A stretch of DNA of 52,643 nucleotides, taken from the NCBI GenBank assembly GCA_964350175.1, contig CAYGJP010000001.1:3147-55789 (forward strand). Direction: 5' to 3'. The position numbers were made by a program, and so were the translations under genes. Source of the DNA: an uncultured Candidatus Bathyarchaeia archaeon (GTDB lineage Archaea > Thermoproteota > Bathyarchaeia > Bathyarchaeales > Bathycorpusculaceae). Positions 35,604 to 50,962 of the stretch are shown here, piece by piece; position 1 is the stretch's first letter; every line of letters starts with the position of its first letter. The notes beneath the pieces are model-generated. The model did no database searches and had not been told where the DNA came from. It saw only the letters and a program-made list of their open reading frames with translations.

Positions 35604-35720
35604 AACGCGTTGTGTGGTTATGATTTTGTTTTTCTAGTTACCATGGCAGCTGCCTGGGGCTTCGTTTTTCCTGTTCGCTTGCTTATAAAACGAAACTAAT
35701 GTTTGAGGCGGATTTTGCCT

Positions 35721-35885
35721 TTATTTAAGCGGTAAGTCGGGTGAGCTGTCGTCGCTCCATTTGCAGTCTCGGCAATACACATCGTACAGCTCCGATAAGT
35801 CGTGGGGCGATTTTAATTCTTGGGTGTGTATGTTGGTTGAGCCGCAGTTAGGGCACCGCTTCGGCGTTATCTTTCCCAATGTCAC
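35721..35885 (-). CDS. possible 54-aa zinc-ribbon protein (below track cutoff)
   Basis: Manual translation gives VTLGKITPKRCPNCGSTNIHTQELKSPHDLSELYDVYCRDCKWSDDSSPDLPLK*. It has two CxxC pairs and a GTG/TTG start only, and lies downstream of the PIN gene. Confidence 0.35.
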   Translation of the reverse strand: MTLGKITPKRCPNCGSTNIHTQELKSPHDLSELYDVYCRDCKWSDDSSPDLPLK

Positions 35886-35926
35886 ATCTCACTTGGTTTA
35901 TTGCGCTTTTACTTCTTCAAGCGTCT

Positions 35927-36487: not shown

Positions 36488-36790
36488 TTACTCCTCATAC
36501 TTTGTCCGCAAATAATCCAATGCGCCTTCGAAATCCCAGTTAACCGAGATACCCTTGCGCTCAAGCAACTCCAAAAACTCCCGCAGCGAAACACCCAAAA
36601 CCTCCGCAGCCCACATAGCACTCACTTTCCCCTCATCATAAAGGTGAACCACACGATGCCGCAAGCCATCCTCGATGAACTCCTTAAACAACGTGGAACG
36701 GTCAACCTTCTCAAGCGCGCGGACAGCCTCAAGCCTCTTCAAATCACGGCGAGAAAGACGCACGGTGACAACGCTGCTCTTCTCAGACAT
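36488..36790 (-). CDS. UPF0175-family antitoxin-like protein (COG2886-type)
   Basis: 'VVHLYDEGKVSAMWAAEVLGVSLREFLELLERKGISV'. I chose the ATG at 36790 (MSEKSS). Confidence 0.75.
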   Translation of the reverse strand: MSEKSSVVTVRLSRRDLKRLEAVRALEKVDRSTLFKEFIEDGLRHRVVHLYDEGKVSAMWAAEVLGVSLREFLELLERKGISVNWDFEGALDYLRTKYEE

Positions 36791-36925
36791 GCATACTCCC
36801 CACATAAAGAGACTACAATGTAACACATAAGCATATCGCCAAAAACCACCAACACTCAAAATGTAAAATAACAAAAAATAGATAAATGACGGGGTCTTTT
36901 CTCATACAACAATAGAGGAATCTAA

Positions 36926-37363
36926 ATGGCAAGCACCATCAAAGTAAGCGACATCATGACCAAATCTGTCCCAGTTGTGGACAACGAAACAAGCGTAGCA
37001 AAAGTAGTCAACCTCATGGCAGAAAAAGACCTAGGCTACGTCATGGTAGAAATGCAAAACAAACCCACAGGCATCATAACCGAACACGACCTCATCGTCA
37101 GGCTCATAACCCAAAACCTCGCAACCAACGCCGTCATAGCCCGCATGGTCTACACCAACCCAATCTTCACCATCGACCAAAACGCCACCATCACAGAAGC
37201 AGTCCAGATGATGAACCACTGGGGCGTCAAACACCTACCCGTCACAGGCGCCAAAGGCGAACTAGTCGGCGTCATCACCGCAGACAACATCATCGTAGCA
37301 GTCCCCGCCATGCTAGCAGAACTAGCCGAACTCTACAAACCAGGCTACAAACGCGTACGATAA
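36926..37363 (+). CDS. stand-alone CBS-pair protein
   Basis: Two CBS repeats ('IMTKSVPVVDNETSVAKVVNLM...', 'MVYTNPIFTIDQNATITEAVQMM...HLPV'). Confidence 0.85.
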   Translation: MASTIKVSDIMTKSVPVVDNETSVAKVVNLMAEKDLGYVMVEMQNKPTGIITEHDLIVRLITQNLATNAVIARMVYTNPIFTIDQNATITEAVQMMNHWGVKHLPVTGAKGELVGVITADNIIVAVPAMLAELAELYKPGYKRVR

Positions 37364-37392
37364 ACAACTCTACCAACAAAAACAAACACCAT

Positions 37393-37420
37393 CCGCAAAA
37401 ATTCTTGCGGAAAATTTTTT
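37393..37420 (+). terminator. hairpin + T-run after the CBS gene
   Basis: CCGCAA-aaattc-TTGCGG (37393..37410), followed by TTTTTT at 37415..37420. Confidence 0.5.
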
Positions 37421-37603
37421 CCACCCAAACAGCCACGCCAGAGTCTGAAACCGCAACAGCCCCTCCCCTAAACCGAAAACAAAAATAAACCTCTAACCAG
37501 TCGCTTTTGCGTTCACTACGGCTGACCTCTCTGATGATTCGCTTATCTTGCCGTAAGTAAAAATAAGAAAAATGTTTCTGATAACAGAAAAGCTTGTCTG
37601 TGC

Positions 37604-37729
37604 TTAGTTGTGGTCTACTAAGTGAGCTGTCCCGTCAGGACAATAGACTTTCTCGTCTTTTGATACTCGCTGGTAGCGTTCACTGCAAATGTGCAGCTGA
37701 GTACATCCGTCACAGTCTCTTGAAAGCAT
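37604..37729 (-). CDS. 41-aa Cys-rich protein (below track cutoff)
   Basis: Manual translation gives MLSRDCDGCTQLHICSERYQRVSKDEKVYCPDGTAHLVDHN*. GGAGG lies 8 nt upstream of the ATG. Confidence 0.45.
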   Translation of the reverse strand: MLSRDCDGCTQLHICSERYQRVSKDEKVYCPDGTAHLVDHN

Positions 37730-37923
37730 ACATTCGCCTCCTGTAAGTATTCCATGAAGGGTCTAAACTGCTAATAAGCTTATGTAATATGCACAGATAT
37801 ACAACACAAACTTCTAAAACACACCCAAGTGCAGCCTGCCCAATTTTGTGTTTTCAGTGGCTGCCCCCACAGTTACCACTCCCCAGAGGTAGCATCAAAC
37901 CACACAAACCCTGCAACGCAGTC

Positions 37924-38310
37924 TCACTTGACTTCTTTCACGTGAACAACAACAAACCTAGGATTCCCCTGAGTCACCACGGGGTAGTACTCCTGCGTAA
38001 TGAAGTCACCAACCCCAACGCGCCCATCACCATCAACATCAACATGAACCTGCACCACATACATCCCCCTCAAATCCGAAATCTCAGCCGCCAAAGAAAA
38101 CTCCACCTCACGCACAACCCCCGCCCTCCACTCATCCTCCGCCACCCCAACATTCCCTATAACCTGCTCCGCAAGGGTCTGCGAGGGCACATCCATCTTG
38201 CTGACATCTTCCAACCGTACGTAAACCGTTGCGTTCGCAAACGGCTTCGCTACCCCATCAAACACAATTTTCCCCGAAACCACCACTTTCTCACTTGGCA
38301 TACTACTCAC
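37924..38310 (-). CDS. hypothetical beta-rich protein (YbaY-like 'VYVRLEDVSKMDVPSQTLAEQ' segment)
   Basis: Track ORF immediately downstream of the astacin gene on the same strand. Confidence 0.55.
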   Translation of the reverse strand: MSSMPSEKVVVSGKIVFDGVAKPFANATVYVRLEDVSKMDVPSQTLAEQVIGNVGVAEDEWRAGVVREVEFSLAAEISDLRGMYVVQVHVDVDGDGRVGVGDFITQEYYPVVTQGNPRFVVVHVKEVK

Positions 38311-38362
38311 ACCTCAACTCACCCACATATATAAAAAGAAAAAAGGGGAAAAAACCTGAAAG

Positions 38363-39796
38363 TTACACTGGACGTAACATGCACTCCCTGTACCTTCGCG
38401 TGTAGAGCTGACACAGACTATAATGATACTTATTGCGTGTATAGCTAAACAGGCAACAGTAGTACGCCGCCAAGAACCGATAGTAATAGCACAGATACAC
38501 CTTAACCCGCCGCGTCCTATACAAACTCAGATAATACGCCGCCCGCTTCCGGTAAACATCACAGCTTCGAATGTCAAGCGCTGGCTCCAGCTCCACTTCT
38601 GCTTCCTCTTCCAGCGGCAGTTCCGCCTCTTCCTCAAGCATCGGCTCCAGCTCCACTTCCTCCTCAAACGGCACCTCCAACTCTTCCGCAAACTCAGGCT
38701 CCACTGCTTCCGCTTCCACAGCTTCAAATTCCTGCTCCGGAACCACCAGCCCCTTCGGTATAGGTCCAACTGGTCCATAACGCGCCCGATAGATCTTGTA
38801 GAGATTCAAGTACTTCACCTGCCTCGTAAACCGGTACTTGCACAAGAAATACGCAACGATATACCTGTAATAGCAAAGATAATTCCTCAACCGCAAACAA
38901 TTCTGCGCCGCCACCCAATACTTCCGACAAGGATCCGGCAACACACAATCAGGATACATCGTCTTCATCGCCGCGATGTCACCCGCACTAAGCGCAGTTC
39001 TTTGACCCATACATTCCGCTCCCGCCTTAAGAGGGGTTATCGTATCTTGTCCATTAATCGAAAACGCTTTCCGAGGATAATGCATTATCGAGCAGTAATC
39101 ATAAGCTCCGATGTCTTGACCTGAATTCAGGTATTGCGCAAAATTATGCTGCGCACTCGCAACTATATTCTGCCAATTAATCGTCACAAAATTGTTCCTG
39201 TCATTGCGGCTTTGCTCATGGAAGTAACCAATGGCGTGCCCCATCTCGTGAACAGCATTCCCAAAAGAGAAACCTGTACCCAGACACAAATCCTGCTTGC
39301 CGCCCCGCCGACCAACATAAGACCATAAACTCCCTGTGCCGTCATCAAAGAACCGCACATAATCACTCTCGGTCGTTCGCGCCTTAAACTTGAAGCTTGT
39401 CTTATCCGTCCAATGATTCATGGCATCCGTCACTTTTGCCTGATCCGAAAGACTAGCGTCAAAAACATATGCCATGGTGCAGCTTGGCCACCTGTACTGC
39501 GCTCCCACAATTGCACCCGCCGCCAAAGGCATCGATGTAACTGCGTCATCAGACCTCATTTTTTCTTCAGCTGCCTTCTGCAACAAAACCGTGTTGTCGT
39601 TGCTCTTCTTCAGCTCTTCAGCAGTGCCAAGACAAATATCCCCTTCAGCCAAAGCCATGCCATTCATAATCACATACTCTACTTTTTCATTGACAAATCC
39701 TGGTCCTGACCAAAAACCCGACAGTGGCTCCGAATCTGATGCTGGAAATTCACCTTTCAGTTTTTTTCCCGATTCACTTTTTTTCATAAAAATCAC
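38363..39796 (-). CDS. astacin-family (M12A) zinc metalloprotease with atypical C-terminal extension
   Basis: 'HEMGHAIGYFHEQSRNDRNNFVTINWQNI' (HExxHxxGxxHExxRxDR) at 39197..39250 and Met-turn 'YDYCSIMHY' at ~39077..39103. Confidence 0.85.
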   Translation of the reverse strand: MIFMKKSESGKKLKGEFPASDSEPLSGFWSGPGFVNEKVEYVIMNGMALAEGDICLGTAEELKKSNDNTVLLQKAAEEKMRSDDAVTSMPLAAGAIVGAQYRWPSCTMAYVFDASLSDQAKVTDAMNHWTDKTSFKFKARTTESDYVRFFDDGTGSLWSYVGRRGGKQDLCLGTGFSFGNAVHEMGHAIGYFHEQSRNDRNNFVTINWQNIVASAQHNFAQYLNSGQDIGAYDYCSIMHYPRKAFSINGQDTITPLKAGAECMGQRTALSAGDIAAMKTMYPDCVLPDPCRKYWVAAQNCLRLRNYLCYYRYIVAYFLCKYRFTRQVKYLNLYKIYRARYGPVGPIPKGLVVPEQEFEAVEAEAVEPEFAEELEVPFEEEVELEPMLEEEAELPLEEEAEVELEPALDIRSCDVYRKRAAYYLSLYRTRRVKVYLCYYYRFLAAYYCCLFSYTRNKYHYSLCQLYTRRYRECMLRPV

Positions 39797-40111
39797 CTCC
39801 TTTGCGAATTAATAAACCGAGAACTACATTTTACATCTAGCATCCTAGCTTATAATCATTATCAGCCACAAAACGGCGCGCGTGTTGATTTTACAAATGA
39901 AACAGTTTGGTGATTTTGCAATCACATGTGAAATCCGCTAATTACATTGTAGCGTATTAATCCCGTCAAAAGAGCATTATATCTGCGCTTGAACTCCTTC
40001 TGAAGTCAAACTTATGCACAACCCTGCAGGCTCACTATGCAATAACCTATAAAATTAACCCTGCTACACAATCTACAGACACACACCCCGCAAACTAAGG
40101 AGGCAAAGAAC

Positions 40112-40345
40112 ATGCGCGACGATGTCATGTACCAAAAAGCCCGCTACCTCATAGAAAGCGGCAGAGTCGAAAACCTAGGAAACGGAGTTTTCAACGTCAT
40201 AGGCGAACACGGCACCTACACCGTCGCACAGGAACCCGCCACAGGCAAGCTAAGCTGCACCTGCCAAGGCTTCCTACGCAAAGGCCAATGCAGCCACGCC
40301 CAAGCCGTCGCGCTGATGCCCAAGCGGCGCCGCAGACCACGGTAA
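40112..40345 (+). CDS. small SWIM zinc-finger protein
   Basis: 'LSCTCQGFLRKGQCSHAQAV' (CxC...CxH). AAGGAGG upstream. Confidence 0.7.
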   Translation: MRDDVMYQKARYLIESGRVENLGNGVFNVIGEHGTYTVAQEPATGKLSCTCQGFLRKGQCSHAQAVALMPKRRRRPR

Positions 40346-40383
40346 CCACAAACTTATTAGCCTAAAAAACAGAAACTTCTAGT

Positions 40384-40668
40384 ATGCGAAAAATTTTAGT
40401 CACAACAGTTTTTGTTGCTGTTTGGTCCGCCATAACCATATTGGCGATGCTCTACGGGGCATACTATGATTGGCCAGACAATGTGCATACTGATTACGGC
40501 TGGCCATCTGCGTACGCTACGCATACTACGAGTACCTTTGCAGGCGCGGCTGACCTGTGGGTCGTCAACACGGTATACCTTGCCACGGACCTCATTTTCT
40601 GGCTGGGCAGCCTAACAGCGGCAGTGGCGATAATACAAATAGTCCTTAACAAAAAACAGACAAAATAA
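40384..40668 (+). CDS. small membrane protein (2 TM helices)
   Basis: Track ORF with hydrophobic N- and C-terminal helices. Confidence 0.5.
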   Translation: MRKILVTTVFVAVWSAITILAMLYGAYYDWPDNVHTDYGWPSAYATHTTSTFAGAADLWVVNTVYLATDLIFWLGSLTAAVAIIQIVLNKKQTK

Positions 40669-41066
40669 ACAAAAGAGACAGGGAAGACCAGCAACAATTC
40701 CCCGCCCCTTCAAGTTTTCTTAATTATTAGCGTCCATTTTGATCCTTCCCATGTTACTCTCAACCTATTATTCGGGTTCGATTTTGCGGGTGGCTTCTCG
40801 TTTTGCACGTGAAAACACGTACTCGGCGAAAGCGATAGGCACGGCGCACAGGCCCAAGCCCACTACGACTAAAGTTCCAATATCCCTGTTTTTCACACAT
40901 CCTTTGTTTTTAGTAACTCCATAGCAACCAACGTATATAAAGCGAGTTGAGAACTGTTCATAACTTTTAAGAAAAACCTGACATGCGCACAGTGAAAAAC
41001 TGTTGTTGTGGATAAAAGTTGAATGTTGTGGGTTAGTGGTAGACGTTTGTCCCAAAGCTTCCTGAG

Positions 41067-41612
41067 CTACTTGCTGCCCTTCAAAGCTTGAAGTATCTCC
41101 AAGGTGCCTTCCTTCTTCGCCTGCCGCTTCACCGCGGCTAAATCCACTTTTGTAAAAGCCAAAATCGCCTTCACATCTTCCACATCCTTCACAGTCCGCT
41201 CTCTGGGAACTGTCACTTTAATCATCCGCAACTTCGCCAAAACCAATCCTTCAGGCTTCTGGAAAAACGTATTCACCCCCGCTACTGTGCCCGCCTGCTT
41301 GTCCAGCTTCTCACCAGAAAAAATAACATCCACAGTGTAAGCTGATGCCTTATCCCGAAACGTAGCAATATTATAACCCGAAGCCAAAGCTTCAGAGATT
41401 TTCCGTTCCTCCACCTCCAAACCAGCCCGACGCAGCACAGCCCCAACTTTTTTGACATCCGCTCCGCCAACACCCACCATAACATCAACATCACTTGTGG
41501 TTCTGGGCGCACCGTAGAAACTCACCGCCAACGCCCCCGTAAAAGCATAATCCAAACCTTCGCTGTTGAAAGCTTCTGCCAGCCGATTAGCAAACCTATA
41601 AAACTTCTCCAT
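41067..41612 (-). CDS. minimal nucleotidyltransferase-fold protein (MNT/AbiEii-like)
   Basis: 'TGALAVSFYGAPRTTSDVDVMV' (G-x-...-D-x-D NTase motif). Confidence 0.65.
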   Translation of the reverse strand: MEKFYRFANRLAEAFNSEGLDYAFTGALAVSFYGAPRTTSDVDVMVGVGGADVKKVGAVLRRAGLEVEERKISEALASGYNIATFRDKASAYTVDVIFSGEKLDKQAGTVAGVNTFFQKPEGLVLAKLRMIKVTVPRERTVKDVEDVKAILAFTKVDLAAVKRQAKKEGTLEILQALKGSK

Positions 41613-41619
41613 GCTGCTT

Positions 41620-41832
41620 TCACCGTTTACGATGACGCTTAGACCACTCCAGCCGCTCCCGAAGCTTCACAATCAATTCTTCTTCGCTGATGCCTGGGTT
41701 CTGGGCTCTAATGCCCTCCGCGCAGATTTGCACGCAAGCGTCAGACATGTCCATGCAGATGGCTACTTTCTCTTCAGGCAACAACCGCCCCAACCGCATC
41801 CAGTCTTTATCCACGCGCCAAAACCTCGACAC
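41620..41832 (-). CDS. 70-aa helical partner of the nucleotidyltransferase
   Basis: Track ORF, 8 nt upstream of the NTase gene on the same strand. Confidence 0.5.
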   Translation of the reverse strand: MSRFWRVDKDWMRLGRLLPEEKVAICMDMSDACVQICAEGIRAQNPGISEEELIVKLRERLEWSKRHRKR

Positions 41833-41880
41833 AAGGATAGTGCAGTTTAGCCTTAAGAAACATTCCCTTGGACAGCAGCG

Positions 41881-42987
41881 TCAACCCGCCGCGGAAAAGC
41901 TGCGAATCATCGTCGTGTCCCCATCTCTTGAACCCTGACTAGCGTAAACCCAAAGCTTACCCCCATACACAAACATGTTCTCAACTGCCATGCCGCTTAG
42001 CTCGTAGACGCTACTCCATGTCGTGCCGTCGAAGCTGCGAACTAAACCTTGGTAATGCGAGTTCCAGAACACGTACAGCTTCCCTTCATACACACATGCA
42101 CCCGCGCTTCCGCTGCCATACTGCCCCACAGGACTAACCGCCTCAAACACACCCAAAACGCCATCAGCACCAAGGCGCCTTATAGCCAACGCTGAAGGCG
42201 AAAAATACTCGCTTTCCCAAAAAACAAACCGCTCCCCCATAAAACCAACCATGAAAGGTCCCAGGTTCGTGGCGTCATCATCAGGCATGTTCAACCATGC
42301 TACGTCGCTCCAGTTTTCTCCGTCAAAACTGCCCACGTAAATGTCTTCATGCGTGTGAAAAACTGGTGGACCCTGCCGAACGGTCTGGTTCTCCCAAACA
42401 GCCCATAACTTGCCATCCAAAACCGTGAAACTCTGACCGTTCGGCGCCGACGTGGGAAAAACGGCGTTTCGTGTTTCACTCCACGTTTCGCCGTCAAATG
42501 TCTTGAAAGAAAAAACATTGTACCCAGGCTGCACCCAAATCAACCATGCTTTGTCGTCTATACCGAGCACTTTTGCGCCGTAGTGAATTTCATTTTGGCT
42601 GAATGCCCCGGATGCCTCTTCCCATCTGGTGCCATCAAACCACTTTAGCTTACTTTGTGAGGTCCACTCGTAACTGGTGTAGTTTACTATCCACTTCTCC
42701 GTTAGCAACGCGTATAGCTTCCCATTATAAACGAAACATCCGCCCTCAGTGCTCACCTCATCCGCGGGGTTGCTTACCGCTACTGCGTCACTGACGTTTT
42801 CTCCATCAAACGTACGGTAAAACGTGTCATAAAGAAAGTATTCACTAGGCTTGAGGAAGTCACTGGTGTAGGTGTGGGTGTCCTTGGTTATTGAGGAGTA
42901 GAACATGTACAGTTTGCCCTGAAACTCTACCGGCGAAGGCCAACCTAAATTCAGAGTTTGCCTGTCGCTCCACTGTCCCCCTCCCAA
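41881..42987 (-). CDS. beta-propeller repeat protein (7-8 blades, 'GKLY/GKLW' and Asp-box-like 'FDGxxWS' repeats); N-terminus apparently frameshifted
   Basis: Repeats FQGKLYMFY / YNGKLYALL / LDGKLWAVW / YEGKLYVFW / YGGKLWVYA, plus FDGTRWEE / FDGETWSE / FDGENWSD / FDGTTWSS. Confidence 0.7.
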   Translation of the reverse strand: MGGGQWSDRQTLNLGWPSPVEFQGKLYMFYSSITKDTHTYTSDFLKPSEYFLYDTFYRTFDGENVSDAVAVSNPADEVSTEGGCFVYNGKLYALLTEKWIVNYTSYEWTSQSKLKWFDGTRWEEASGAFSQNEIHYGAKVLGIDDKAWLIWVQPGYNVFSFKTFDGETWSETRNAVFPTSAPNGQSFTVLDGKLWAVWENQTVRQGPPVFHTHEDIYVGSFDGENWSDVAWLNMPDDDATNLGPFMVGFMGERFVFWESEYFSPSALAIRRLGADGVLGVFEAVSPVGQYGSGSAGACVYEGKLYVFWNSHYQGLVRSFDGTTWSSVYELSGMAVENMFVYGGKLWVYASQGSRDGDTTMIRSFSAAG

Positions 42988-43115
42988 GACCGCGAAGACT
43001 CACCAAGAAAGTTCAAGCAAACTAGCAGCGAAGCCACAACAACAATAACGGCTAACATGACAGCCAGCGCAACCAGAACCCCATGCCTCATATTAATGAG
43101 GTTTTGTTTTGTCAT
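42951..43115 (-). pseudogene. 54-aa signal-anchor ORF, probably the detached N-terminus of the beta-propeller protein
   Basis: Manual translation gives MTKQNLINMRHGVLVALAVMLAVIVVVASLLVCLNFLGESSRSWEGDSGATGKL*. It overlaps the propeller ORF by 37 nt. The propeller ORF is in its -1 frame across a G5 run (C5 on the + strand at 42977..42981). Confidence 0.5.
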
Positions 43116-43212: not shown

Positions 43213-43389
43213 TCAAACCTTTAGCCGCTTTACCAATGCCTTAACGCGCTCTTCATCCTTTAAGTAGTCTTCAAGTAAAGCATTGGTTGCCTCATAAATC
43301 TTCAAGTCATTCAGCAAAGCCAGCTTGCGCAGTTCCCGATGCAAATCCTCCCTGACCTCTATGACCACGCGCCTACGCTTATCCACCAT
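43213..43389 (-). CDS. 58-aa ribbon-helix-helix (CopG/Arc-like) protein (below track cutoff)
   Basis: Manual translation gives MVDKRRRVVIEVREDLHRELRKLALLNDLKIYEATNALLEDYLKDEERVKALVKRLKV*. It starts 3 nt after the hub-gene stop. Confidence 0.6.
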   Translation of the reverse strand: MVDKRRRVVIEVREDLHRELRKLALLNDLKIYEATNALLEDYLKDEERVKALVKRLKV

Positions 43390-43392
43390 GGT

Positions 43393-44979
43393 TTATCGCT
43401 TCGCTGCCTTATACCTGCTCAAACTGTCCGTCTTGCTCCGCAGCGCGTACACGTAGTCTGCCAAAAGCGGCGCCTCCCGCCCCAACTCCAGCCGCGTTTC
43501 CAAAATCTGAGAGCCCCCATCCACCCGGTACTCCATGCTCAACACCCGAAAATCTGCATCCACACCCTCAACAGGCAACTCAACATGCACCGTGTCACCT
43601 GCCAACACAGGCGTTGCCCCGTAATCCAGAACCGAACTTTGCAGCGACAAGCTCTCCGCTGGGTCCTTCAAATTCGACAGCAACGCCTTCGCCCGCCCAG
43701 CACATTCGGTGTCGCTCCACAACTCCTCGTTAACCTCCACCAGCTCCCGCAAACCAAAACTGCCCTGACTAACCACATCTTGCTGCACGCTGCCATAGCG
43801 ACGACCCCCAAAAAACACGCTATCCACCCAGAATGCGCCCGTGCCCACATCGTCAAACCAGCAAATCACCCGCACCCGCCAAATCCTTGTCCAGTCAAAC
43901 CCGCTCTGCACCTGCCACAAATCCGCACTCCCAGCGCCCACCTCCATTTGGGTTTGGAACCATTTGCCAGAGCCAACCGTGAATTCCCGCGTGGCTGCGC
44001 GGTCCAAGTTGTCAAACAGCGTCAGCGTCACGTTCCCGTTAAAAGTGGTGTCTCTGCACAGCCACAGGTTCAAAACTGGGTACGCTCCAGTATCTACTAG
44101 TTTGTCGCTGTTTAGGGTGAACACGCAGCCTGCATACTGAAAGTTGTCCATGTAGGTTTTCACGCTGCCCCACCCCTTCACCTGCATCGCGGTGTCGAAG
44201 CTGACGGTGCCTGCCATGGCAGTCCAAACCCCATCCAGCGGCGTTAGGCTCTCAGTCCACGCATCCTTGTCGGCGGGCACGCTTTTGTCGGCGGCGCCGT
44301 AAACTGTGATTTTGTTTCGCACCCTGTGCACATCATTGGTGTACTCGTAGTATTCGACGCGCTCGCTGAGGCTGACGCTGCTGGGTTTGGTGCCTTTTGG
44401 GAAAAACTCGAATTTGCCGTCAGGCGACACGCGGAAATCGTAGCCGATTACGCCCTGCTTGTCCGCGCTTTCTGCCACAAATTTGAGCACATCTACGACG
44501 GGGGTGCCCTCGTAGGCTAAGTTGGCGTAGGTTGTGTCTGTAGTTTCCACCAGTTCCACGCCGCCTCGGCTGTGGCTCAAACCCACATAGTAGTCCAACA
44601 GGTCCTTAACGATGTCTTCGCCCTTCACGTTGGTGTAGGTTTTGGTGATGACTCGGCGGAACAACCGCTCACCCCAACAACGCCCACTGACATGCACGTA
44701 ACTTTCCACAGGCGAAGATTCGTACTTGATGCCCTCCACGCGACAAGTCATCAACAAGGGACACGTGGCGCCGCGCCCAATGCTTAAGCTGCCATCAACG
44801 CCAACGCTCAGGGGGCTGGCGCCGTTGGGGCTGTATTTGCCGCCAAAATTCTGCAACCTCACCTCGAAGCTGCTCACCTCGTTTGTGCAGCCTAAATGCA
44901 CCTTCAACTCCACAATGTCACCTTGGGACGGCGCAACCGAGCCGAAAACCACCGCCACCGTGGGAGCAACAACACTCAC
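43393..44979 (-). CDS. tail hub / baseplate-type protein (gpD/XkdQ-like N-terminal half, beta-rich C-terminal half)
   Basis: The pattern 'CRVEGIKYESSPVESYVHVSGRCWGERL...GEDIVKDLLDYY...VLKFVAESADKQGVIGYDFRVSPDGKFEFFPKG' is typical of tail hub proteins. It occupies the position after the tape-measure-like gene. Confidence 0.55.
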   Translation of the reverse strand: MSVVAPTVAVVFGSVAPSQGDIVELKVHLGCTNEVSSFEVRLQNFGGKYSPNGASPLSVGVDGSLSIGRGATCPLLMTCRVEGIKYESSPVESYVHVSGRCWGERLFRRVITKTYTNVKGEDIVKDLLDYYVGLSHSRGGVELVETTDTTYANLAYEGTPVVDVLKFVAESADKQGVIGYDFRVSPDGKFEFFPKGTKPSSVSLSERVEYYEYTNDVHRVRNKITVYGAADKSVPADKDAWTESLTPLDGVWTAMAGTVSFDTAMQVKGWGSVKTYMDNFQYAGCVFTLNSDKLVDTGAYPVLNLWLCRDTTFNGNVTLTLFDNLDRAATREFTVGSGKWFQTQMEVGAGSADLWQVQSGFDWTRIWRVRVICWFDDVGTGAFWVDSVFFGGRRYGSVQQDVVSQGSFGLRELVEVNEELWSDTECAGRAKALLSNLKDPAESLSLQSSVLDYGATPVLAGDTVHVELPVEGVDADFRVLSMEYRVDGGSQILETRLELGREAPLLADYVYALRSKTDSLSRYKAAKR

Positions 44980-44982
44980 AGT

Positions 44983-45525
44983 TTATTCGACTCCTCGCCT
45001 ATACAGCTCCGCTGCACCCGCACGCTGAATACTACGAGTATGCTGGGGAGTATCCGAGGTGGCACTGTTGAAGTCCTGCACGCTGGCGGCGGCTTTGTTC
45101 ATGCTGCTCGCGAAACTTATCATGGCGGCGGATGCGGCAACAATTACGGCTATGCCTACGCCCGTTAACGCGAGAAAAGTGGCGAAGCTGATGTTCAAGC
45201 TGTTTTGGACGGTGGTGGCAAACGCGGTTGCTGCCGCATACACCTTCTGGGCTACCGCAACGCCTGCACTGGTCCGCATAAACATACCCATCACGCTGAC
45301 AACCATCATGGCGCTGTTGAACACTCTTGCCTGGGCATCGTTCAAAACTCCGAACTGGTTCGCAACATAACCCACAACGGTTCCTGCAGCGCCCAGTCCA
45401 GCAATTGCGGAGCCTAAACTTTTAACCCGCGTGGCAAGGCTTTGCGCGTCGGTTTGGATGCGGCTGAATTCGGAGCTTGCGCGGTTGACGGCTCGGATGG
45501 TGACCGCTATTTCTCTAAAACTCAA
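44983..45525 (-). CDS. short tape-measure-like protein (180 aa)
   Basis: Ala/Gly/Val-rich with hydrophobic segments. It lies between the chaperone/gp10 genes and the hub gene. No diagnostic motif. Confidence 0.45.
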   Translation of the reverse strand: MSFREIAVTIRAVNRASSEFSRIQTDAQSLATRVKSLGSAIAGLGAAGTVVGYVANQFGVLNDAQARVFNSAMMVVSVMGMFMRTSAGVAVAQKVYAAATAFATTVQNSLNISFATFLALTGVGIAVIVAASAAMISFASSMNKAAASVQDFNSATSDTPQHTRSIQRAGAAELYRRGVE

Positions 45526-45890
45526 AGGTTAGCCTCCGTCTTAGCTGTGTCTAAAGCGTCTAGCAGTGTGGGTTCCAGCTGAGGCAAGAGCTGTTCCAAT
45601 GCGGGTTGGATGAACGGTTTCGCTTGGGCGTAGCGGGTGCCGAACTCGACGGCTGCGGCGTAGGCGGCTTCTGCACCAACTTCACTTTGCCACTGCTGTG
45701 TTCTGGTGTAGATGGTGCTCCGCAGGTAACCCGTCCTTGAAGGCGCAAGGTTTGCAGCTTGAGTTTTGGCATTCTCAGCCCACTCGCTAAGACGCTGCTG
45801 CACTTGCCTCTGCATACCACTATCGAAACGGCTGAGTGCCTGCGCGAATTCCTCTGCGCCTGCAAGGTCAATTTGAACTTCAACGCTCAT
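45522..45890 (-). CDS. HK97-gp10-family tail component
   Basis: 'LAPSRTGYLRSTIY...EVGAEAAYAAAVEFGTRYAQAKPFIQPALEQ' matches the family signature (P..TG.L..SI...YA..VEFGT....A.PF..PA). Confidence 0.8.
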   Translation of the reverse strand: MSVEVQIDLAGAEEFAQALSRFDSGMQRQVQQRLSEWAENAKTQAANLAPSRTGYLRSTIYTRTQQWQSEVGAEAAYAAAVEFGTRYAQAKPFIQPALEQLLPQLEPTLLDALDTAKTEANL

Positions 45891-46068
45891 GTTTCTTGGC
45901 TTCCTCCTCGGTTTGGCGGTCTACTTCGTTGAGGATGATGGTGAACTGCTGGATAGTTTTGGCTGGCTGTTTTGCGAGTTCTGTTGGGAGCCATCCGAAT
46001 TCTTTGCATAAGCGGAAGTCTGTGACTGTGGGGTTGGGTTTTTGGCGTCTGATGGCTCGGATAAAAAA
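45880..46068 (-). CDS. -1 frame extension of the tail chaperone (GT-like fusion C-terminus)
   Basis: The -1 frame after TTTTTTA reads FFIRAIRRQKPNPTVTDFRLCKEFGWLPTELAKQPAKTIQQFTIILNEVDRQTEEEAKKHER*, which is globular-looking. Its stop overlaps the start of the gp10-family gene. Confidence 0.55.
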   Translation of the reverse strand, partial: FFIRAIRRQKPNPTVTDFRLCKEFGWLPTELAKQPAKTIQQFTIILNEVDRQTEEEAKKHER

Positions 46069-46403
46069 GCCGATTCTTCCCTTGTCACGGCGCACAGGTT
46101 GTTGACTGTTTGCGAGAGCAGTTCGCCCAGCGCGATGGGGATGCCGTTTTCTTCGCCCAGCAGCTTCTCCAGCGTCAGCGGCTGACTTGACGGTTGCTCT
46201 TTTAGGGCTGCCCAGATGGTTTCAGCCTGTATGGCTATGAAGTCGCTGCTCAACACCTGCCCCGACACAGGGTGGTAGCGGGTGTGTTTTTGGATGATGC
46301 GGCTGCGTTTTGCCCAAGTGATTTCTTGGAAAACATAGTTGCCCACGTATTCTGCGCCGTATTCAGCGCCAACTTCCAAAGTTTCTTTGCGCATTAAGTC
46401 CAC
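45921..46403 (-). CDS. tail assembly chaperone, 0-frame product (G-like)
   Basis: Position between the tail-tube-like and tape-measure-like genes. The last ~48 aa, after the slippery site, are S/Q/N/P low complexity. Confidence 0.6.
   Translation of the reverse strand: MDLMRKETLEVGAEYGAEYVGNYVFQEITWAKRSRIIQKHTRYHPVSGQVLSSDFIAIQAETIWAALKEQPSSQPLTLEKLLGEENGIPIALGELLSQTVNNLCAVTREESAFLSEPSDAKNPTPQSQTSAYAKNSDGSQQNSQNSQPKLSSSSPSSSTK
46062..46068 (-). other. slippery heptamer T_TTT_TTA (X_XXY_YYZ) for -1 ribosomal frameshifting
   Basis: The + strand reads taaaaaa at 46062..46068. I verified the 0-frame codons GCT|TTT|TTA from ORF phase (start 46403) and the -1 codons TTT|TTT|ATC from the phase of the 46095 ORF. 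Confidence 0.6.
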
Positions 46404-46404
46404 C

Positions 46405-47262
46405 TCAGGTTATGGTGAAGGTTTTGGCGACAAACTCCGCTTTGAGACTCACGAGTTCTTCTATGCGTGTTGGCGCGGCAACGTTTTCCCATTTACAGTT
46501 GCTAAAAACGGCTTTGCTGGTTCCGCCTAAACCAAACTCCAAAGTGAATTCGGCGTCGTTGACGACGTTGTCGAATTCTTCTTTGCTTTCAAACTCGAAA
46601 ACCACTTCGCCTGTGAGGTTGCGGTGCCTATGCGGTAAGTACTTCAGGATGTGGCCGTTGGTGCTGCGTATGACGGGGACGCTTTTGAGGTTGTTTTCCA
46701 CGCTAAATTTCCAGTCAGTGACGCGGTCCAGCGTGGCGGTGTCTTTTTTGATGTAGCTCTCGTAGAACGGCACCGCTCCAACGTAGTCGGCGTAGGTGGC
46801 ACCTGAAATCTTCGCGGTTCCCGCCGTGAGGTTTTGAGCAAGCAGCTCCACGTTCGCTTTCACGACTTCTTCGATGCTGCATTCCACGGTGAGTTTTTGG
46901 AATTTGCAGCCCGAATACAAAAGCGAAATTATGTCAGTGGCAGACGCGAAGACGCCCTTGTAGTAGAGCAGTTGGATGCTCAGGGACTTATCCAGTTCGT
47001 TTCTGGCGTACTGGAGAAAGTTTATGGGTGCATCGCTTGGCAACGGATACGCAATTTTTAGACTTGGCGCTCGTAGTCCTTTCTTTATCGCTTGCAGGTC
47101 AACGCTGCCGACTCCACGCAGCTTAATGTTGTTTGGATTCACCGTTGGCTCCAAGCTTTCTGCGGGGATGCCCAGCATCGTGGGGTTTGTTGGGGTTTGC
47201 CCGTAAGCCGTTTCGTCCACGTAGTAGACGCGGCTTTCGTGGGCGCTGTATGTTTCTGGCAT
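46405..47262 (-). CDS. major tail (tube)-like protein
   Basis: Beta-rich 285 aa with 'LTGEVVFEFESKEEF...AEFTLEFGLGG..KAVFSNCKWENVAAP...LVSLKAEFVAKTFTI'. It lies immediately upstream of the frameshifted chaperone. An HK97-fold capsid is not excluded without modelling. Confidence 0.55.
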   Translation of the reverse strand: MPETYSAHESRVYYVDETAYGQTPTNPTMLGIPAESLEPTVNPNNIKLRGVGSVDLQAIKKGLRAPSLKIAYPLPSDAPINFLQYARNELDKSLSIQLLYYKGVFASATDIISLLYSGCKFQKLTVECSIEEVVKANVELLAQNLTAGTAKISGATYADYVGAVPFYESYIKKDTATLDRVTDWKFSVENNLKSVPVIRSTNGHILKYLPHRHRNLTGEVVFEFESKEEFDNVVNDAEFTLEFGLGGTSKAVFSNCKWENVAAPTRIEELVSLKAEFVAKTFTIT

Positions 47263-47269
47263 TTGTTTT

Positions 47270-48247
47270 TTACACTCCTATGTTCTCAAAAAACCATGAT
47301 TTCACCGTGAACTCGGTGCGGAAAATGAAGGGCATAACGTCCACGCGGTCTAAATCTCGGTAGTTGACAACGTCGCAGTACGTTATGCCGTTCACCGTGA
47401 CCACCGCGCAAGCGTAGTCGCAGTGCAGAACTGCGGGTGTCTGGGCGCTGGCGGGGTTGGTTGTTCGGGCAAGAAACCAGACGTAGCCGTCTTCGTCTAT
47501 GTAGTCTGGCATGTTCACTGTTAGGGGGATGGCGATTGTTTCGTCGCTTCCGCCTGTGCCGCCTGACTGCGCATTCTCCCATGAGCAACTTTCGCTGTTC
47601 CACGCTTTCACGGTGACCCCGTTGCCGCTAGGCGCCGTGCCGAATCCTTCAAAGGACAGGACTATTTTCTTGGTGGTTTTTTCTCTACTTTCCACTTTGA
47701 AGCCAAAAAGAACAGCCGCATACGCGCCAACTTCGTTTACGCTTAGTTGGTAGCGGTTGTCGTCGCTTGCCCAGAACTTCTGATAACCCTCACTTGCCAG
47801 TTCAGTCCAAGCGTTTGGCGTGTAAGGCGAAGCTTCAATTTTGCCAAAGTAGGTTTTGTGCGTTTGGCTGCCTGCCCCCAGATTGTAGAAGTCGTAGGTG
47901 GTTTCGTTGGGTCGGATGCGTTTTTGCCGCACGACGCGGTTGACTTCTTCCACGATTTTTCCTCGCATGACCCTGCCCGATTCGCCTGCGCCTGACTGCT
48001 CCGATGTCCACACGTTAACCCGTAGAACTTGCAGTCGTTTGCGCCATTTTCCTGTTAACTCGATTTTCTGGTCTGCGCTTTCAGCAAAGCCCACGGTGAC
48101 TTGCCCGTCAAAGCCCTTGATGGCTTCCGCATTCTGCCACTCCCTGGTGACGTTTACATTGGCTAAACCGCCGTCGTCCTTGACAACGCGCAGATTCGTC
48201 TTAAGCAGCCTCGCCACCGTTGCAGATGCCTCTTCGGTTTCACTCAT
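47270..48247 (-). CDS. putative tail-completion/terminator-like protein with a large internal insertion
   Basis: The N-terminal ~115 aa and the C-terminal ~40 aa resemble small neck/tail-terminator proteins. The middle ~170 aa ('GFKVESREKTTKKIVLSFEGFGTAPSGNGVTVKAWNS...') looks like an inserted beta-sandwich. Support is weak. Confidence 0.4.
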   Translation of the reverse strand: MSETEEASATVARLLKTNLRVVKDDGGLANVNVTREWQNAEAIKGFDGQVTVGFAESADQKIELTGKWRKRLQVLRVNVWTSEQSGAGESGRVMRGKIVEEVNRVVRQKRIRPNETTYDFYNLGAGSQTHKTYFGKIEASPYTPNAWTELASEGYQKFWASDDNRYQLSVNEVGAYAAVLFGFKVESREKTTKKIVLSFEGFGTAPSGNGVTVKAWNSESCSWENAQSGGTGGSDETIAIPLTVNMPDYIDEDGYVWFLARTTNPASAQTPAVLHCDYACAVVTVNGITYCDVVNYRDLDRVDVMPFIFRTEFTVKSWFFENIGV

Positions 48248-49665
48248 TAGTTAATTAGCCTCCTGCATGTGGCTTTGCGAAACGCGGTTTCGCCCTTGAA
48301 CATGTAGTCCTGTACGGTGAGGATTTCGTAGTCTTGGCCGTTTCGGCGGATTTTGTCGTGTTGCCGCACAGGCGCGAAAACGTGCATGGCGAAATAGTCG
48401 TGGGTGACATAACCTGGTTCCAACAGAACCTCTTCGGTTTTTGTGGGCAAAACGATGGCTTTGACGTCTACGCCTTTGCCGTAAACCGTTCTGTCGCCCG
48501 CTTGGGTCAGGGGGTACAGTGTTAGGTTTTCGCCTTTGCTGTTTAGAACCTGCGTGAACCGCGTAACAGGCGCCTCGTAACCCAGTAATAGTTGCGCTAG
48601 CCAACACACCGTAGCCGTCGCTTGCTTGTTCTCCACAAAACTGTAGTCCGCGTGCTTGACGCCCCAAAACATAAACTCGTCTGCATGTGCCGTGATGATG
48701 TTGACGCTGAACTCGTAGGCGGATTTGTCGTGGTCACGGCGAATCGGCGCCAGAATCCCCGAGGTCACTGCGTCGTAGTAGTCGCAGGTGGGCACTTTTG
48801 ATACCGCGTCAAGGTACCCTGCCCAGCACACAGCAGGATTATAGGCTGGATACGCTTGCGAAGCGCCGATGGCATTAATGTAGCTGTAGGCTTTCTGCAC
48901 TGTGCCGCTGTAGCCTTCGTAATCGTAAAGCCCAAACAGCGCGTAAGCCAGCGAATCGTCAATTATGACGCGGTCAGCTTGGTCCACACGGTGCCAGCCT
49001 CCGTCCCCAGCAGGCAGCGGACTATAATGGTCAAAGCATTCCTCTAAGCCAACACGGTAAAAATTCACCGCGTCCGCCATAATTGCTTCATACTGAGTCT
49101 TGTTTGCTGGGTCCGCTTCGCACAGCATCCTCAACGCAGGCAGCCCGTGGAGGCAAACCACATCCATCTCGGGGAGCCACTGGTCCCCAAGCGAAACAGC
49201 CCTCGCAAACCCACCGTAAAAGCGGTCATGCACGCCCAACTGGCTTGGTTTATGCTGCATGTTGAACAGAAAAACGTTGCCCGCCAATACTGCCCCCTCC
49301 AAATAGGCGATGTTGTTTGTGAGTTCGTAGGCTTTCAGCAGCGCAGGCACCGTGCGGCACGCATCCACAGCGTAGTACTCTGTGCTGGTTTCTTGGCTCT
49401 TGAAACCCCCGTAAGCCAGCTTATTTGCATCTGTGCATTGTTGCGTGAGGATCCAGTCGGCAAGCTCCACGATTTTTGCTTCTATTTCGCTGCTTCGAGC
49501 GTCGAACTGGGGGTGGAAGTAGGCTTCGAACAGAAAATCCACTGCGAACGCCGCGGAAAACGCTGCTTTTCCCCATGTCTGGTCGGGTCCAACATCTGGG
49601 ACCACATAGAGGTACGGCGCATACTCCATGACGTACTCGTAGTAAGCTTCAGGAACCTTTGGCAT
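48247..49665 (-). CDS. fusion of an (alpha/alpha)6-toroid-like domain with a head-closure/head-tail-joining-like C-terminal domain
   Basis: 'LADWILTQQCTDANKLAYGGFKS' and 'RFYGGFARA' are toroid-type repeats. The C-terminal 'GVDVKAIVLPTKTEEVLLEPGYVTHDYFAMHVFAPVRQHDKIRRNGQDYEILTVQD' is head-tail-joining-like. I chose the ATG at 49665, 5 nt after the upstream stop. Confidence 0.5.
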   Translation of the reverse strand: MPKVPEAYYEYVMEYAPYLYVVPDVGPDQTWGKAAFSAAFAVDFLFEAYFHPQFDARSSEIEAKIVELADWILTQQCTDANKLAYGGFKSQETSTEYYAVDACRTVPALLKAYELTNNIAYLEGAVLAGNVFLFNMQHKPSQLGVHDRFYGGFARAVSLGDQWLPEMDVVCLHGLPALRMLCEADPANKTQYEAIMADAVNFYRVGLEECFDHYSPLPAGDGGWHRVDQADRVIIDDSLAYALFGLYDYEGYSGTVQKAYSYINAIGASQAYPAYNPAVCWAGYLDAVSKVPTCDYYDAVTSGILAPIRRDHDKSAYEFSVNIITAHADEFMFWGVKHADYSFVENKQATATVCWLAQLLLGYEAPVTRFTQVLNSKGENLTLYPLTQAGDRTVYGKGVDVKAIVLPTKTEEVLLEPGYVTHDYFAMHVFAPVRQHDKIRRNGQDYEILTVQDYMFKGETAFRKATCRRLIN

Positions 49666-49670
49666 GGTTT

Positions 49671-50024
49671 TCAGGCGCTCCCCACAACCGGCGGCTTCAA
49701 CGCGCTCAACAAGCGTTCCAGTTCTTGCTGTAAAATGCACAGCGGCGGCGCCTTATCCAAGACGCTCACGTTCTGGTCGCCCACGCTAAAACTCAACCCA
49801 ACCGCAGAACCACCCGTCAAGTAGCAAACCACATAAACCGCCGCCAACAAAACGATGCACTCTTTCTCCGCATCCGCGCAGTTTGCAGAGTCAATTTCTT
49901 TGCCAAGTTCAAGTTCAATTGTGACCGTTGCGCGTTTAACCATTTTTTGAAGCTTAACGTCGGGAACATCCACAACGCTAACATTGATGGCGTCGCGCAC
50001 GTCGCTGAGGGCTACGTTTGCCAA
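49671..50024 (-). CDS. gp6-like head-tail connector protein (tentative)
   Basis: 117 aa, 'LSDVRDAINVSVVDVPDVKLQKMVKRATVTIELELGKEI' pattern. TTG start with AGGTGA 5-6 nt upstream. First gene of the packed operon. Confidence 0.5.
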   Translation of the reverse strand: MANVALSDVRDAINVSVVDVPDVKLQKMVKRATVTIELELGKEIDSANCADAEKECIVLLAAVYVVCYLTGGSAVGLSFSVGDQNVSVLDKAPPLCILQQELERLLSALKPPVVGSA

Positions 50025-50181: not shown

Positions 50182-50511
50182 TTAGCTGGGCAGCAGAATT
50201 CTGACGAAGTTTTGGATTTCTTTGGATATCCCTTTTATGTTGTCTGCTTTTTGTTGTCCTTGGCTGGTTAAGGTGTACACTCTGCCTGGGTTTTCTCGGA
50301 CGGTTCTTATCCAACCCTTGCGCTCCATGTTTGAAAGTTTAGAGTAGACCGTGCTTGGGCCTACCCTGACGCCGAATTTTTTTGTGATGGTGCTGTTTAC
50401 TTCGTATCCCGTCATGGGTCTGTGCGCTAACATTTGTAGTATAACTAAATCGAGGTAAGCTAGTAAACTTCGATGGCGGATGCTTGGTTTTATTTCTGTT
50501 TTGGTCCCCAA
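50182..50511 (-). CDS. PadR-family transcriptional regulator
   Basis: 'LDLVILQMLAHRPMTGYEV...VGPSTVYSKLSNMERKGWIRT'. Confidence 0.85.
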   Translation of the reverse strand: MGTKTEIKPSIRHRSLLAYLDLVILQMLAHRPMTGYEVNSTITKKFGVRVGPSTVYSKLSNMERKGWIRTVRENPGRVYTLTSQGQQKADNIKGISKEIQNFVRILLPS

Positions 50512-50779: not shown

Positions 50780-50962
50780 TTGAATGATGTGCCTCGCAAA
50801 TGTGTAGTTAAAGTCTGGCTAAGCACCGAACAAAGAGGCATCCTAGACGAGTTAGCAAGGCGGCTGGGCGCCAGCGAAAGCGAAATCCTACGCATAGCCC
50901 TCCTAGACTACGCCAAAGAACTCAGCATGGTCAAAGAACACGTCCACAAAGGACAAAACTAA
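50780..50962 (+). CDS. ribbon-helix-helix (CopG-like) protein
   Basis: 'VKVWLSTEQRGILDELARRLGASESEILRIALLDYA'. Divergent from PadR. TTG start. Confidence 0.6.
   Translation: MNDVPRKCVVKVWLSTEQRGILDELARRLGASESEILRIALLDYAKELSMVKEHVHKGQN

Follow-up and report, generated by a model that had tools for sequence, protein, structure and literature searches.

The stretch of DNA analysed here, called the window below, comprises 52,643 nucleotides of contig CAYGJP010000001.1 (positions 3,147 to 55,789; assembly GCA_964350175.1) from an uncultured Candidatus Bathyarchaeia archaeon. Its minus strand carries, from 50024 to 43213, a run of tail genes that, as argued below, probably belongs to a particle system resembling a gene transfer agent (GTA). 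Reading of the open reading frames (ORFs) resolves this run into nine tightly packed ORFs and one overlapping extension in the −1 frame, and confirms a genuine, intact operon for a neck and a non-contractile tail. An initial annotation, made from the sequence alone, had described a packed operon of ten genes; the run, the gene order and the overall anatomy are retained here, but an overlap between the first two genes, some of the protein labels and the gap to an adjoining propeller gene had to be revised. In the direction of reading, the operon contains:

49671..50024, minus strand: head-tail adaptor candidate, first gene of the operon, 117 aa, named from its position only
48247..49665, minus strand: 472-aa protein, (alpha/alpha)6 toroid at the N-terminus and beta-barrel at the C-terminus, from an AlphaFold2 (AF2) model and Foldseek
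47270..48247, minus strand: 325-aa protein of family PF27237 (AF_1625_C), from a precomputed family assignment, AF2 and Foldseek
46405..47262, minus strand: tail tube protein, 285 aa (PF18906 Phage_tube_2, E 3.5e-17; phrog_290, E 9e-18)
45880..46403, minus strand: tail assembly chaperone with a programmed −1 frameshift (slippery heptamer, conserved −1 peptide)
45522..45890, minus strand: HK97-gp10-family tail-completion or Neck1 protein, 122 aa (TIGR01725, phrog_5)
44983..45525, minus strand: short tape-measure candidate, 180 aa (phrog_4211, E 7e-4, and position)
43393..44979, minus strand: tail tip or hub protein of gp27/gpD/VgrG-related type, 528 aa (several weak matches)
43213..43389, minus strand: Arc-like ribbon-helix-helix (RHH) protein, 58 aa, closing the operon (phrog_582, E 3e-4)

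The second gene most likely starts at 49665, giving the 472-aa product that is also called in an identical 12.9-kb contig present in a European Nucleotide Archive (ENA) assembly (L001; related loci are cited by such numbers). Since this start leaves a gap of 5 nt, the second gene does not overlap the first one. The chaperone gene had been proposed to be frameshifted, and this is borne out by comparison. Read directly from the sequence, the slippery heptamer T_TTT_TTA at 46068..46062 agrees in phase with the zero frame, and 29 of 30 loci have an in-phase copy; furthermore, the 70-aa peptide of the −1 frame is conserved at 57–91% in 39 related loci, above the zero-frame tail. The zero frame stops at 45921, 30 nt before the start of the gp10-like gene at 45890. 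Only the frameshifted product, ending at the stop 45880–45882, overlaps this start. As in a G/GT pair, two products are encoded through a −1 slip at the heptamer, between the tube and the tape measure. Two traits are atypical for such a pair: the chaperone and tape-measure genes have the gp10 gene between them, and the frameshift lengthens the product by just ~10 residues.

The tube, gp10-family and terminal RHH proteins were all recognized correctly in the initial annotation. Both profile matches given above agree on the tube; the gp10-family protein reaches 38.8 bits against TIGR01725, above the curated cut-off of 30.8, and matches phrog_5 with E 1.7e-17; the Arc-like RHH gene is kept after the hub gene in most related loci. 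The tape-measure candidate, located between the chaperone and gp10 genes and the hub gene, is plausible from this position and its weak profile match. It is called as 180 aa in L001, L005–L008, L065, L066, L151 and L152, and as 194 aa in L002–L004. By the rule of 0.15 nm of tail per residue, a 180-aa tape measure predicts a tail of ~27 nm. The hub assignment is plausible as well, given several independent weak matches to PF24032 YQBQ (E 5e-5), phrog_400 (E 4e-6), the gp5/VgrG OB-fold of PDB entry 9gtr (E 7e-4) and NCBIfam VgrG_rel (E 1e-3).

The first three genes had been labelled gp6-like, head-closure-like and terminator-like, and none of these labels finds direct support in PDB, Pfam, PHROGs or NCBIfam. 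The adaptor gene, which gave no hidden Markov model or PDB match in these same collections, is kept at 40–91% identity across all related loci. For the second protein, described earlier as a fusion of a toroid with a head-closure-like part, the toroid is retained. Its AF2 model (predicted local distance difference test, pLDDT, 65) matches GH76, N-acyl-glucosamine 2-epimerase and PssZ structures in Foldseek (E 6e-6 to 1e-4, target-normalised TM-score at most 0.59), so that the fold resembles GH76 mannanases and sugar epimerases (glycoside-hydrolase/epimerase-like) and is followed by a small beta-barrel. Among its 832 homologues, the best 120 are mostly 470–476 aa long. Judging from the model, this is probably a neck or virion-associated protein that would bind or cleave glycans. 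The 325-aa protein has 782 homologues, nearly all of the best 120 measuring 321–326 aa, and its model (pLDDT 66) combines an N-terminal alpha/beta domain with a jelly-roll (CBM/MAM-like) domain; the top Foldseek matches are phi812 baseplate proteins (E 4e-6, TM-score 0.3) and CBM/MAM domains. Since the pLDDT of both models is moderate (~65–66), only a fold class is claimed for them. It had been suggested that 47270..48247 be examined as a possible HK97-fold capsid or portal; when folded and compared by Foldseek, it gave no HK97 fold. A capsid or portal hidden among these two proteins is ruled out by their folds, the one containing a jelly roll and the other a toroid and beta-barrel. Family PF27237 is named after AF_1625 of Archaeoglobus fulgidus, and therefore a related gene, perhaps even a related cluster, may exist outside Bathyarchaeia.

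At some distance from the tail operon, the same strand carries a packaging module:

30971..31970, minus strand: three small genes of 133, 88 and 112 aa, always preceding TerL
29566..31008, minus strand: large terminase TerL (Terminase_6N, E 6e-16; Terminase_6C, E 6e-5)
28073..29569, minus strand: ABC-type ATPase–GNAT acetyltransferase fusion, last gene of the element (ABC_tran, E 5e-13; Acetyltransf_10, E 2.5e-6)

The identity of TerL, its membership in this region and the adjoining ABC-GNAT gene all agree with the initial annotation. TerL has 1126 homologues (protein clusters), which come from Bathyarchaeia wherever the source gives a name. The ABC-GNAT gene lies directly 3' of TerL in every fetched locus that reaches past the 3' end of TerL, including L033, L052, L053, L057 and L148–L151, with identities of 48–71% in IMG/VR loci and 63–66% in genome loci; to our knowledge, no partner of this type has been described for terminases. 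Most of 34 IMG/VR loci have the three small genes together with TerL, as do all four genome loci that were fetched via TerL. The small genes gave no family matches in profile searches; from its position alone, the 112-aa gene is a candidate for the small terminase. In the window, the intact tail and packaging (31970..28073) modules are separated by ~11 kb of cargo. In compact relatives, by contrast, the hub gene is followed directly by the TerL block, and for this reason the block is assigned to the same element as the tail. The composition of the TerL/ABC-GNAT block is strand-skewed, with a GC skew of up to +0.34 and an AT skew of up to −0.47 (window 27000–31000), and its proteins are rich in T, K and Q. 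Within 35000–43000, the GC skew reaches −0.33 at 36–40 kb, and the tail operon is almost without skew.

Comparison with related genomes, one of the checks proposed for the initial annotation, revealed a head module upstream of the same adaptor gene in over 20 Bathyarchaeia species. The canonical order in the family is a divergent RHH gene, the head module, a variable spacer, the tail operon, variable cargo, and then the 133/88/112-aa genes, TerL and ABC-GNAT, with all genes after the RHH gene on one strand. The head module encodes, before the adaptor and on its strand, a 388–390-aa protease-like protein, a cement protein (PF09956, E 7e-12), an HK97 capsid protein (PF05065, E 2.6e-7, and phrog_267, E 4e-14, in L005 and many others), a small winged helix-turn-helix (wHTH) protein and a portal-like protein of 404–411 aa, whose match to PF04860 (E 2e-5) is sub-threshold at 24.4 bits against a cut-off of 39.1. 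The portal-like gene is followed by a gene for a 75-aa protein and usually by genes for an Ig-like protein and a Zn-dependent phospholipase C. Cement, capsid and portal genes lie upstream of the same adaptor in L002–L005, L008, L019–L026, L028–L030 and L152. Fifteen related loci have sufficient sequence upstream, and 13 of these show head genes; in L016 and L027, the phospholipase C gene is all that appears in the 10 kb upstream. The phospholipase C (PF00882) recurs between head and tail modules (L003 7072–8085, L009 800–1516, L065 410–1297 and many others) and, from its sequence family, is a candidate membrane-attacking factor for entry or release; its gene is absent from the window, and similar contigs occur in the same samples.

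The family is widespread among Bathyarchaeia. Among GTDB species representatives, a scan detected 22 loci, including one on a complete genome of 3.04 Mb, and among the best 120 homologues of each structural protein nearly all named sources are Bathyarchaeia, on contigs of up to 2 Mb. IMG/VR contigs carry head, tail, 133/88/112-aa, TerL and ABC-GNAT genes compactly on a single strand; judged by gene arrangement, the head, tail and packaging blocks are one element, not two. Size is not constrained in the family. The distance from adaptor to ABC-GNAT is ~11 kb in the compact L033, 12.7 kb in L151 and 22 kb in the window, and the distance from RHH to ABC-GNAT is ~30 kb in GCA_026014615.1. Cluster length varies about 1.5–2-fold. 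The cargo between modules includes toxin-antitoxin pairs, a type I restriction-modification system, an insertion sequence (IS) and surface proteins.

Modules of this family are also found apart. Three IMG/VR contigs (L032, L036, L037) have no tail: their 133/88/112-aa, TerL and ABC-GNAT genes start no more than ~350 nt past the portal gene, an arrangement that mirrors the head-less one of the window. GCA_030153565.1, represented by several assemblies, has its TerL block and its head-tail block on opposite strands, with 22 kb between them. In record Ga0416709_00007 (L150/L152), and likewise in GCA_030153565.1, the TerL block occupies ~121.6–125.5 kb on the minus strand and the head-tail block 148.8–162.1 kb on the plus strand. 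Housekeeping (metabolic) genes lie between the two blocks, a gene for ribosomal protein S10 is found ~2 kb beyond the hub gene, and every ORF of the split element is full length. One inversion apparently explains this split.

The PadR gene and the divergent RHH gene reported upstream of the tail operon are both present:

50182..50511, minus strand: PadR-family regulator (precomputed PF03551)
50780..50962, plus strand: RHH regulator, 60 aa (tblastn orthology)

By tblastn, the RHH gene is 60–81% identical to a single copy per locus that always lies upstream of the head module, and it can be taken on sequence grounds as the orthologue of the left-end RHH gene, which is divergent from the first head gene in complete relatives. 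The PadR gene alone separates it from the adaptor (270 nt from RHH to PadR, 760 nt from RHH to adaptor) and occupies the place of the 7–8 kb head module of the relatives. It is unique to the lineage of the window, no homologue being found in related loci or in IMG/VR. A tblastn search with the head proteins of two relatives detected no capsid, portal or protease in the 52.6-kb window, which therefore has a TerL without a portal and lacks an HK97-fold capsid. Thus, the statement that capsid, portal and protease are missing holds inside the window but not for the element, since the relatives carry a capsid, a portal and a protease-like gene upstream of the adaptor.

Is the missing head then produced by assembly or binning? 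Contigs of close relatives do often break near the head module (L009, L065, L066). However, three or four independent run-level assemblies contain single contigs that cross the junction of adaptor, PadR, RHH and a 441-aa gene beyond, which excludes an assembly chimera; no alternative joints were found in the run assemblies, and the identical 12.9-kb contig recurs in the ENA assembly. Such an artefact is hardly conceivable.

Instead, the head module probably lies elsewhere in the same genome. The four public runs that contain the window (X1–X4) also contain H1-cement-capsid and portal contigs that are 80–85% like L028, as well as contigs 80–88% identical to the phospholipase C/HTH region of a relative. 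The depth of the longest head contig is 7.5 in X1, 5.6 in X2 and 14 in X3, to be compared with 5.7–9.1, 4.7–5.7 and 10–15.6 for the tail contigs of the window. The initial annotation had named capsid genes of the same element outside the window as a finding that would speak against a headless system; since the samples holding the window also hold the head module at the same depth, such genes probably exist, with depth as the only link. The closest relative, L009 (85% nucleotide identity), is instructive in this respect. A 64-nt 3' fragment of the RHH gene adjoins its adaptor, yet the Ig-like and phospholipase C genes are kept 6 kb upstream, behind a Kelch/NosD spacer shared with a third relative; an RHH gene beside the adaptor alone does not, therefore, mean that the head was lost. 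A clean deletion of the head, which the layout may at first suggest, is made less likely by this RHH remnant with its head-proximal genes and by the head contigs of matched depth. A deletion breakpoint cannot be defined, because the intergenic DNA between RHH and head genes in the relatives does not align with the RHH-to-PadR spacer of the window. The inference of a headless element is a window effect or, at most, the result of a local rearrangement.

These data bear directly on two explanations that dispense with a head of the element's own. A tail-only device, such as an F-type tailocin-like bacteriocin or an injection particle whose head is no longer used, would fit a complete, selected tail operon without head genes in the window and with surface-protein genes nearby, yet it leaves the intact TerL, its three partner genes and the retained neck genes (the adaptor-position gene and gp10) without a role, since these are useless without a DNA-filled head. 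Tailocins of the F type consist of tail genes only, whereas the window has both TerL and the HK97-gp10 neck protein; moreover, head genes occur in the 13 of 15 loci mentioned above, and the head module is present in the same samples. We consider this explanation very unlikely. Still less probable is a satellite that would encode connectors and tails and take over the capsids of a helper virus. Head and tail in one block are the rule in the family, and no integrase, primase/replicase or capsid-size-redirecting gene was found, even though a window with tail and terminase genes and no capsid gene, as well as complementary tail-less relatives with head and then TerL modules (L032, L036, L037), is what such a satellite might show. 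Elements of the phage-inducible chromosomal island (PICI), P4 or PICI-like element (PLE) type differ in the same respects: here there is no integrase or replication gene, the family has its own capsid and portal, and no excision joints were seen. The conserved position of the locus by ribosomal and RNA polymerase genes in three genomes also speaks against a satellite. For annotation, this means that the headless tail of the window is no evidence for a satellite or a tailocin.

Beyond the ABC-GNAT gene, the window continues into host DNA:

17317..27700, strand not specified: host flank, outside the element, with the same gene order after ABC-GNAT in two genomes

This flank carries genes for a DEAD-box helicase, YHS, DUF1015, a 2-hydroxyacid dehydrogenase, a SerC-type aminotransferase, RpoN, rpS9, rpL13 and RpoD. 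GCA_026014615.1 has these genes in the same order, and so has GCA_026014465.1 except for the dehydrogenase, with identities of 67–94% in the flank and of 53–84% between the element proteins of these two genomes and those of the window. The region had also been read as a circle, with TerL and ABC-GNAT joined to PadR and the connector genes; since the ABC-GNAT end abuts conserved housekeeping genes, this order is unsupported. At the left end, a response-regulator gene occurs in L005, L019, L024, L025 and L152, and a 114–116-aa gene with its adjoining RHH gene recurs also in L003 and L029. The left-border response regulator (L005 1–240, L152 1677–2150) is ~80% identical between genomes, and a GAF-PAS histidine kinase takes its place in L003 (1–121); this regulator or kinase is possibly the control input of the element.

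All eight tail genes are under purifying selection, with dN/dS values of 0.05–0.16 against the closest relative (dS 0.3–0.7), and frame breaks are absent from 22 of 24 loci. Breaks are seen in L028, in five consecutive tail genes (8280–12265), and in L151, with one in the toroid gene (540–1951); these are either decaying copies or long-read homopolymer errors. A decayed provirus, the first of three options offered in the initial annotation, is contradicted by the intact tail genes and their dN/dS. The second, a satellite, is contradicted by the head and terminase encoded in the family and by the failure to find an integrase or replication gene. The third, a domesticated particle, comes nearest to the evidence, not as a tail-only device but as a head-tail system resembling a GTA.

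With respect to mobility, no Pfam domain of an integrase, of a transposase for excision or of replication was found in the annotated loci, the lone rve-domain gene (L148) being an IS-type transposase in cargo. Excision junctions, which the initial annotation had proposed to look for, did not appear in the reads. The window has no tRNA genes and no convincing flanking direct (att-like) repeats. None of the marks of autonomous propagation, i.e. replication genes, an integrase with att sites, or genome termini, was seen in the loci read, whose flanks were covered up to 10 kb per look-up. These results weigh on a further explanation, a temperate archaeal tailed provirus that reuses one site and whose copy in the window was recently crippled when a deletion between RHH and adaptor removed its head. 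The spacing of RHH, PadR and adaptor is what such a deletion would leave, the lack of a head gene in 52.6 kb agrees with it, and a total of 20–35 kb would suit a small siphovirus; relatives of the element are also listed in IMG/VR. It is not matched, however, by an integrase, att repeat, tRNA target or replication gene in any locus; the tail genes show no decay; the same flanks, where housekeeping proteins are 67–94% identical, fit co-divergence; and both L009, with head-proximal genes despite its RHH remnant, and the head contigs of matching depth run counter to a lost head. Overall, we regard this provirus as unlikely.

Collectively, these data favour, with a probability of about 0.6, the view that the family is a vertically inherited, probably non-autonomous GTA-like particle system, of which the window holds the neck-tail operon. 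The pattern is what would be expected of a domesticated GTA-like system: the family has structural and packaging genes only, has long resided at one locus under selection and tolerates insertions and separation of its modules. Indeed, head, tail and terminase genes are chromosomal, without replication or integration genes, and the orthologous locus is under purifying selection; vertical inheritance is indicated by the right flank in three genomes and the left flank in five loci, with one exception (A05DMB-2). As for particles that would package and transfer random host DNA in pieces smaller than the whole cluster, the variation in cluster length and the intactness of the split loci are indirect hints only. 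More specifically, but tentatively and at somewhat less than even odds, this domesticated head-tail system of Bathyarchaeia may be a GTA of independent origin, vertically inherited at a locus that several genomes conserve, host-regulated and modular, and the first in Thermoproteota. We hold at the same tentative level that head, tail and packaging genes can occupy separate sites, for which this window and GCA_030153565.1 are cited.

For such a GTA-like system, we propose that the cell would express the head, tail and terminase genes in trans through RHH, PadR and wHTH regulators, with the neighbouring response regulator possibly joining this control. Expression in trans is proposed because the family is chromosomal and vertical, lacks integration and replication genes, and has modules that can be separated without decay. 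The products would then build small siphovirus-like particles with a short tail, of the length estimated above, and these particles would package DNA like a gene transfer agent.

Several points weigh against this interpretation. The right flank differs in A05DMB-2, where it is a trp operon, so that the locus is not universally fixed. Element and host phylogenies were compared by identity levels only, and these are similar. A search for RNA runs gave none. IMG/VR lists relatives as viral contigs, a classification that rests on hallmark genes only. A site-specific temperate virus could produce part of the pattern if its integrase lay outside the 10-kb flanks, and a long-resident temperate virus whose integration system went unrecognised is conceivable. 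The head contigs are tied to the genome of the window by matched depth only, the samples also contain a second, rarer related population in which RHH adjoins the first head gene, and the loose ends of the head and phospholipase C contigs match nothing in the window. Alternatively, this copy may truly have lost its head.

Other features of the window lie between or beside the modules:

31971..41880, strand not specified: variable cargo island between tail and packaging modules (Pfam matches, patchy across relatives)
41881..43115, minus strand: membrane-anchored beta-propeller gene, frameshifted (comparison with the L065 orthologue)

The cargo island encodes a PIN-like toxin pair, CBS, SWIM and nucleotidyltransferase proteins, an astacin-like protease and an HNH-like gene, and includes a low-GC stretch; it is absent from compact IMG/VR loci, and other relatives carry replacements. 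The astacin-family metalloprotease (38363–39796; PF01400, E 5e-47) combines an acidic repeat with an unusual C-terminal region rich in Cys, Tyr and Arg. The low-GC stretch (32000–35600, 38–43% against ~50% elsewhere) contains the HNH-like 332-aa gene and several family-less genes, and looks like a separately acquired cargo or defence island.

The propeller gene was correctly described as membrane-anchored, but the 97-nt gap that had been placed between it and the operon requires reading through a frameshift near 42980. The membrane helix (43115..42981) and the propeller (42978..41890) are in different frames, with a G-run near 42980, whereas the L065 orthologue is one ORF of 414 aa whose residues 1–45 and 47–412 correspond to the two frames of the window. 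This frameshift could be an assembly error, phase variation or the mark of a pseudogene. Found in just three related loci, the propeller gene is variable cargo outside the core operon. On the other side of the operon, the 441-aa surface protein (51060–52385; called as 439 aa in L001, with a start differing by two codons) has, besides a C-terminal membrane anchor, seven repeats of ~40–50 residues. Joint Genome Institute (JGI) metagenomes contain 149 related stretches, of 36–52% identity, from the large family of paralogous surface proteins to which it belongs. In the distant locus L130, a gene of this type lies right behind the head module, which is suggestive but weak.

Among known systems, VTA, the voltae transfer agent of Methanococcus voltae, and the defective proviruses related to it in Methanococcales are archaeal, chromosomal and of the head-tail type, and have been proposed to transfer host DNA. 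The Bathyarchaeia family shares with VTA its nature as an archaeal chromosomal particle system of head-tail type; the hosts differ (Methanobacteriota as against Thermoproteota/Bathyarchaeia), and the VTA-linked proviruses carry integrase-type genes, none of which was seen here. The PBSX/skin-type defective prophages of Bacillus are host-kept, non-propagating and phage-like particle systems, as the present family would be, and the hub matches their YqbQ/XkdQ family (PF24032) weakly. The PBSX tail is, however, contractile with a sheath, whereas the present family has no sheath gene and a tube of the Phage_tube_2 family.

The Rhodobacter capsulatus type of GTA in Alphaproteobacteria (RcGTA), in part as described in PMC7296036, resembles the Bathyarchaeia family in its ~15–20 kb core cluster of head, tail and terminase genes that lacks an integrase and replication genes, in purifying selection across the host clade at a conserved chromosomal place, and in a short tape measure with a short non-contractile tail. 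RcGTA can also function with genes at separate loci, as the present family may, and response-regulator-type control nearby is a likeness by analogy only. On the other hand, no sequence of the family was matched to RcGTA genes. The family places the portal after the capsid and the terminase at the far end behind the tail; it adds the ABC-GNAT fusion, the toroid-domain neck protein and the phospholipase C; and its host is archaeal. Among archaeal tailed viruses (Caudoviricetes), Fuxivirus and Kunpengvirus (PMC10848311), which infect Bathyarchaeia, share an HK97-type capsid, portal, TerL, tail tube and further tail proteins. Their genomes have TerL beside the portal and carry replication or integrase genes (PMC10848311), whereas the present family differs in gene order and has neither kind of gene in the loci read. 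None of six longer IMG/VR contigs of the family (L033, L036, L052, L053, L057 and L061) appears in the supplementary files of PMC10848311. The provirus that a survey of archaeal proviruses names in one of the same metagenome-assembled genomes is on a different contig and is not this locus.

The literature searched holds no account of this widespread Bathyarchaeia system with a host-kept appearance, and no substantive link of Bathyarchaeia to gene transfer agents was found in it. Bathyarchaeia are among the most abundant archaeal classes of sediments. If the family is a virus, it would be a widespread and long-resident one of Bathyarchaeia, with the ABC-ATPase–GNAT fusion as an unusual terminase partner. 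If, as we favour, it is GTA-like, it would represent an independent archaeal origin of GTAs, in a lineage that is abundant worldwide and of which few members are cultured, and would explain why virus-detection pipelines repeatedly call these loci viral. The split packaging block, the head outside the window and the contigs with head plus packaging genes are natural experiments that may tell which parts must stay linked. Furthermore, a GTA-like system of this kind would provide a concrete route of horizontal gene exchange in anoxic sediments.

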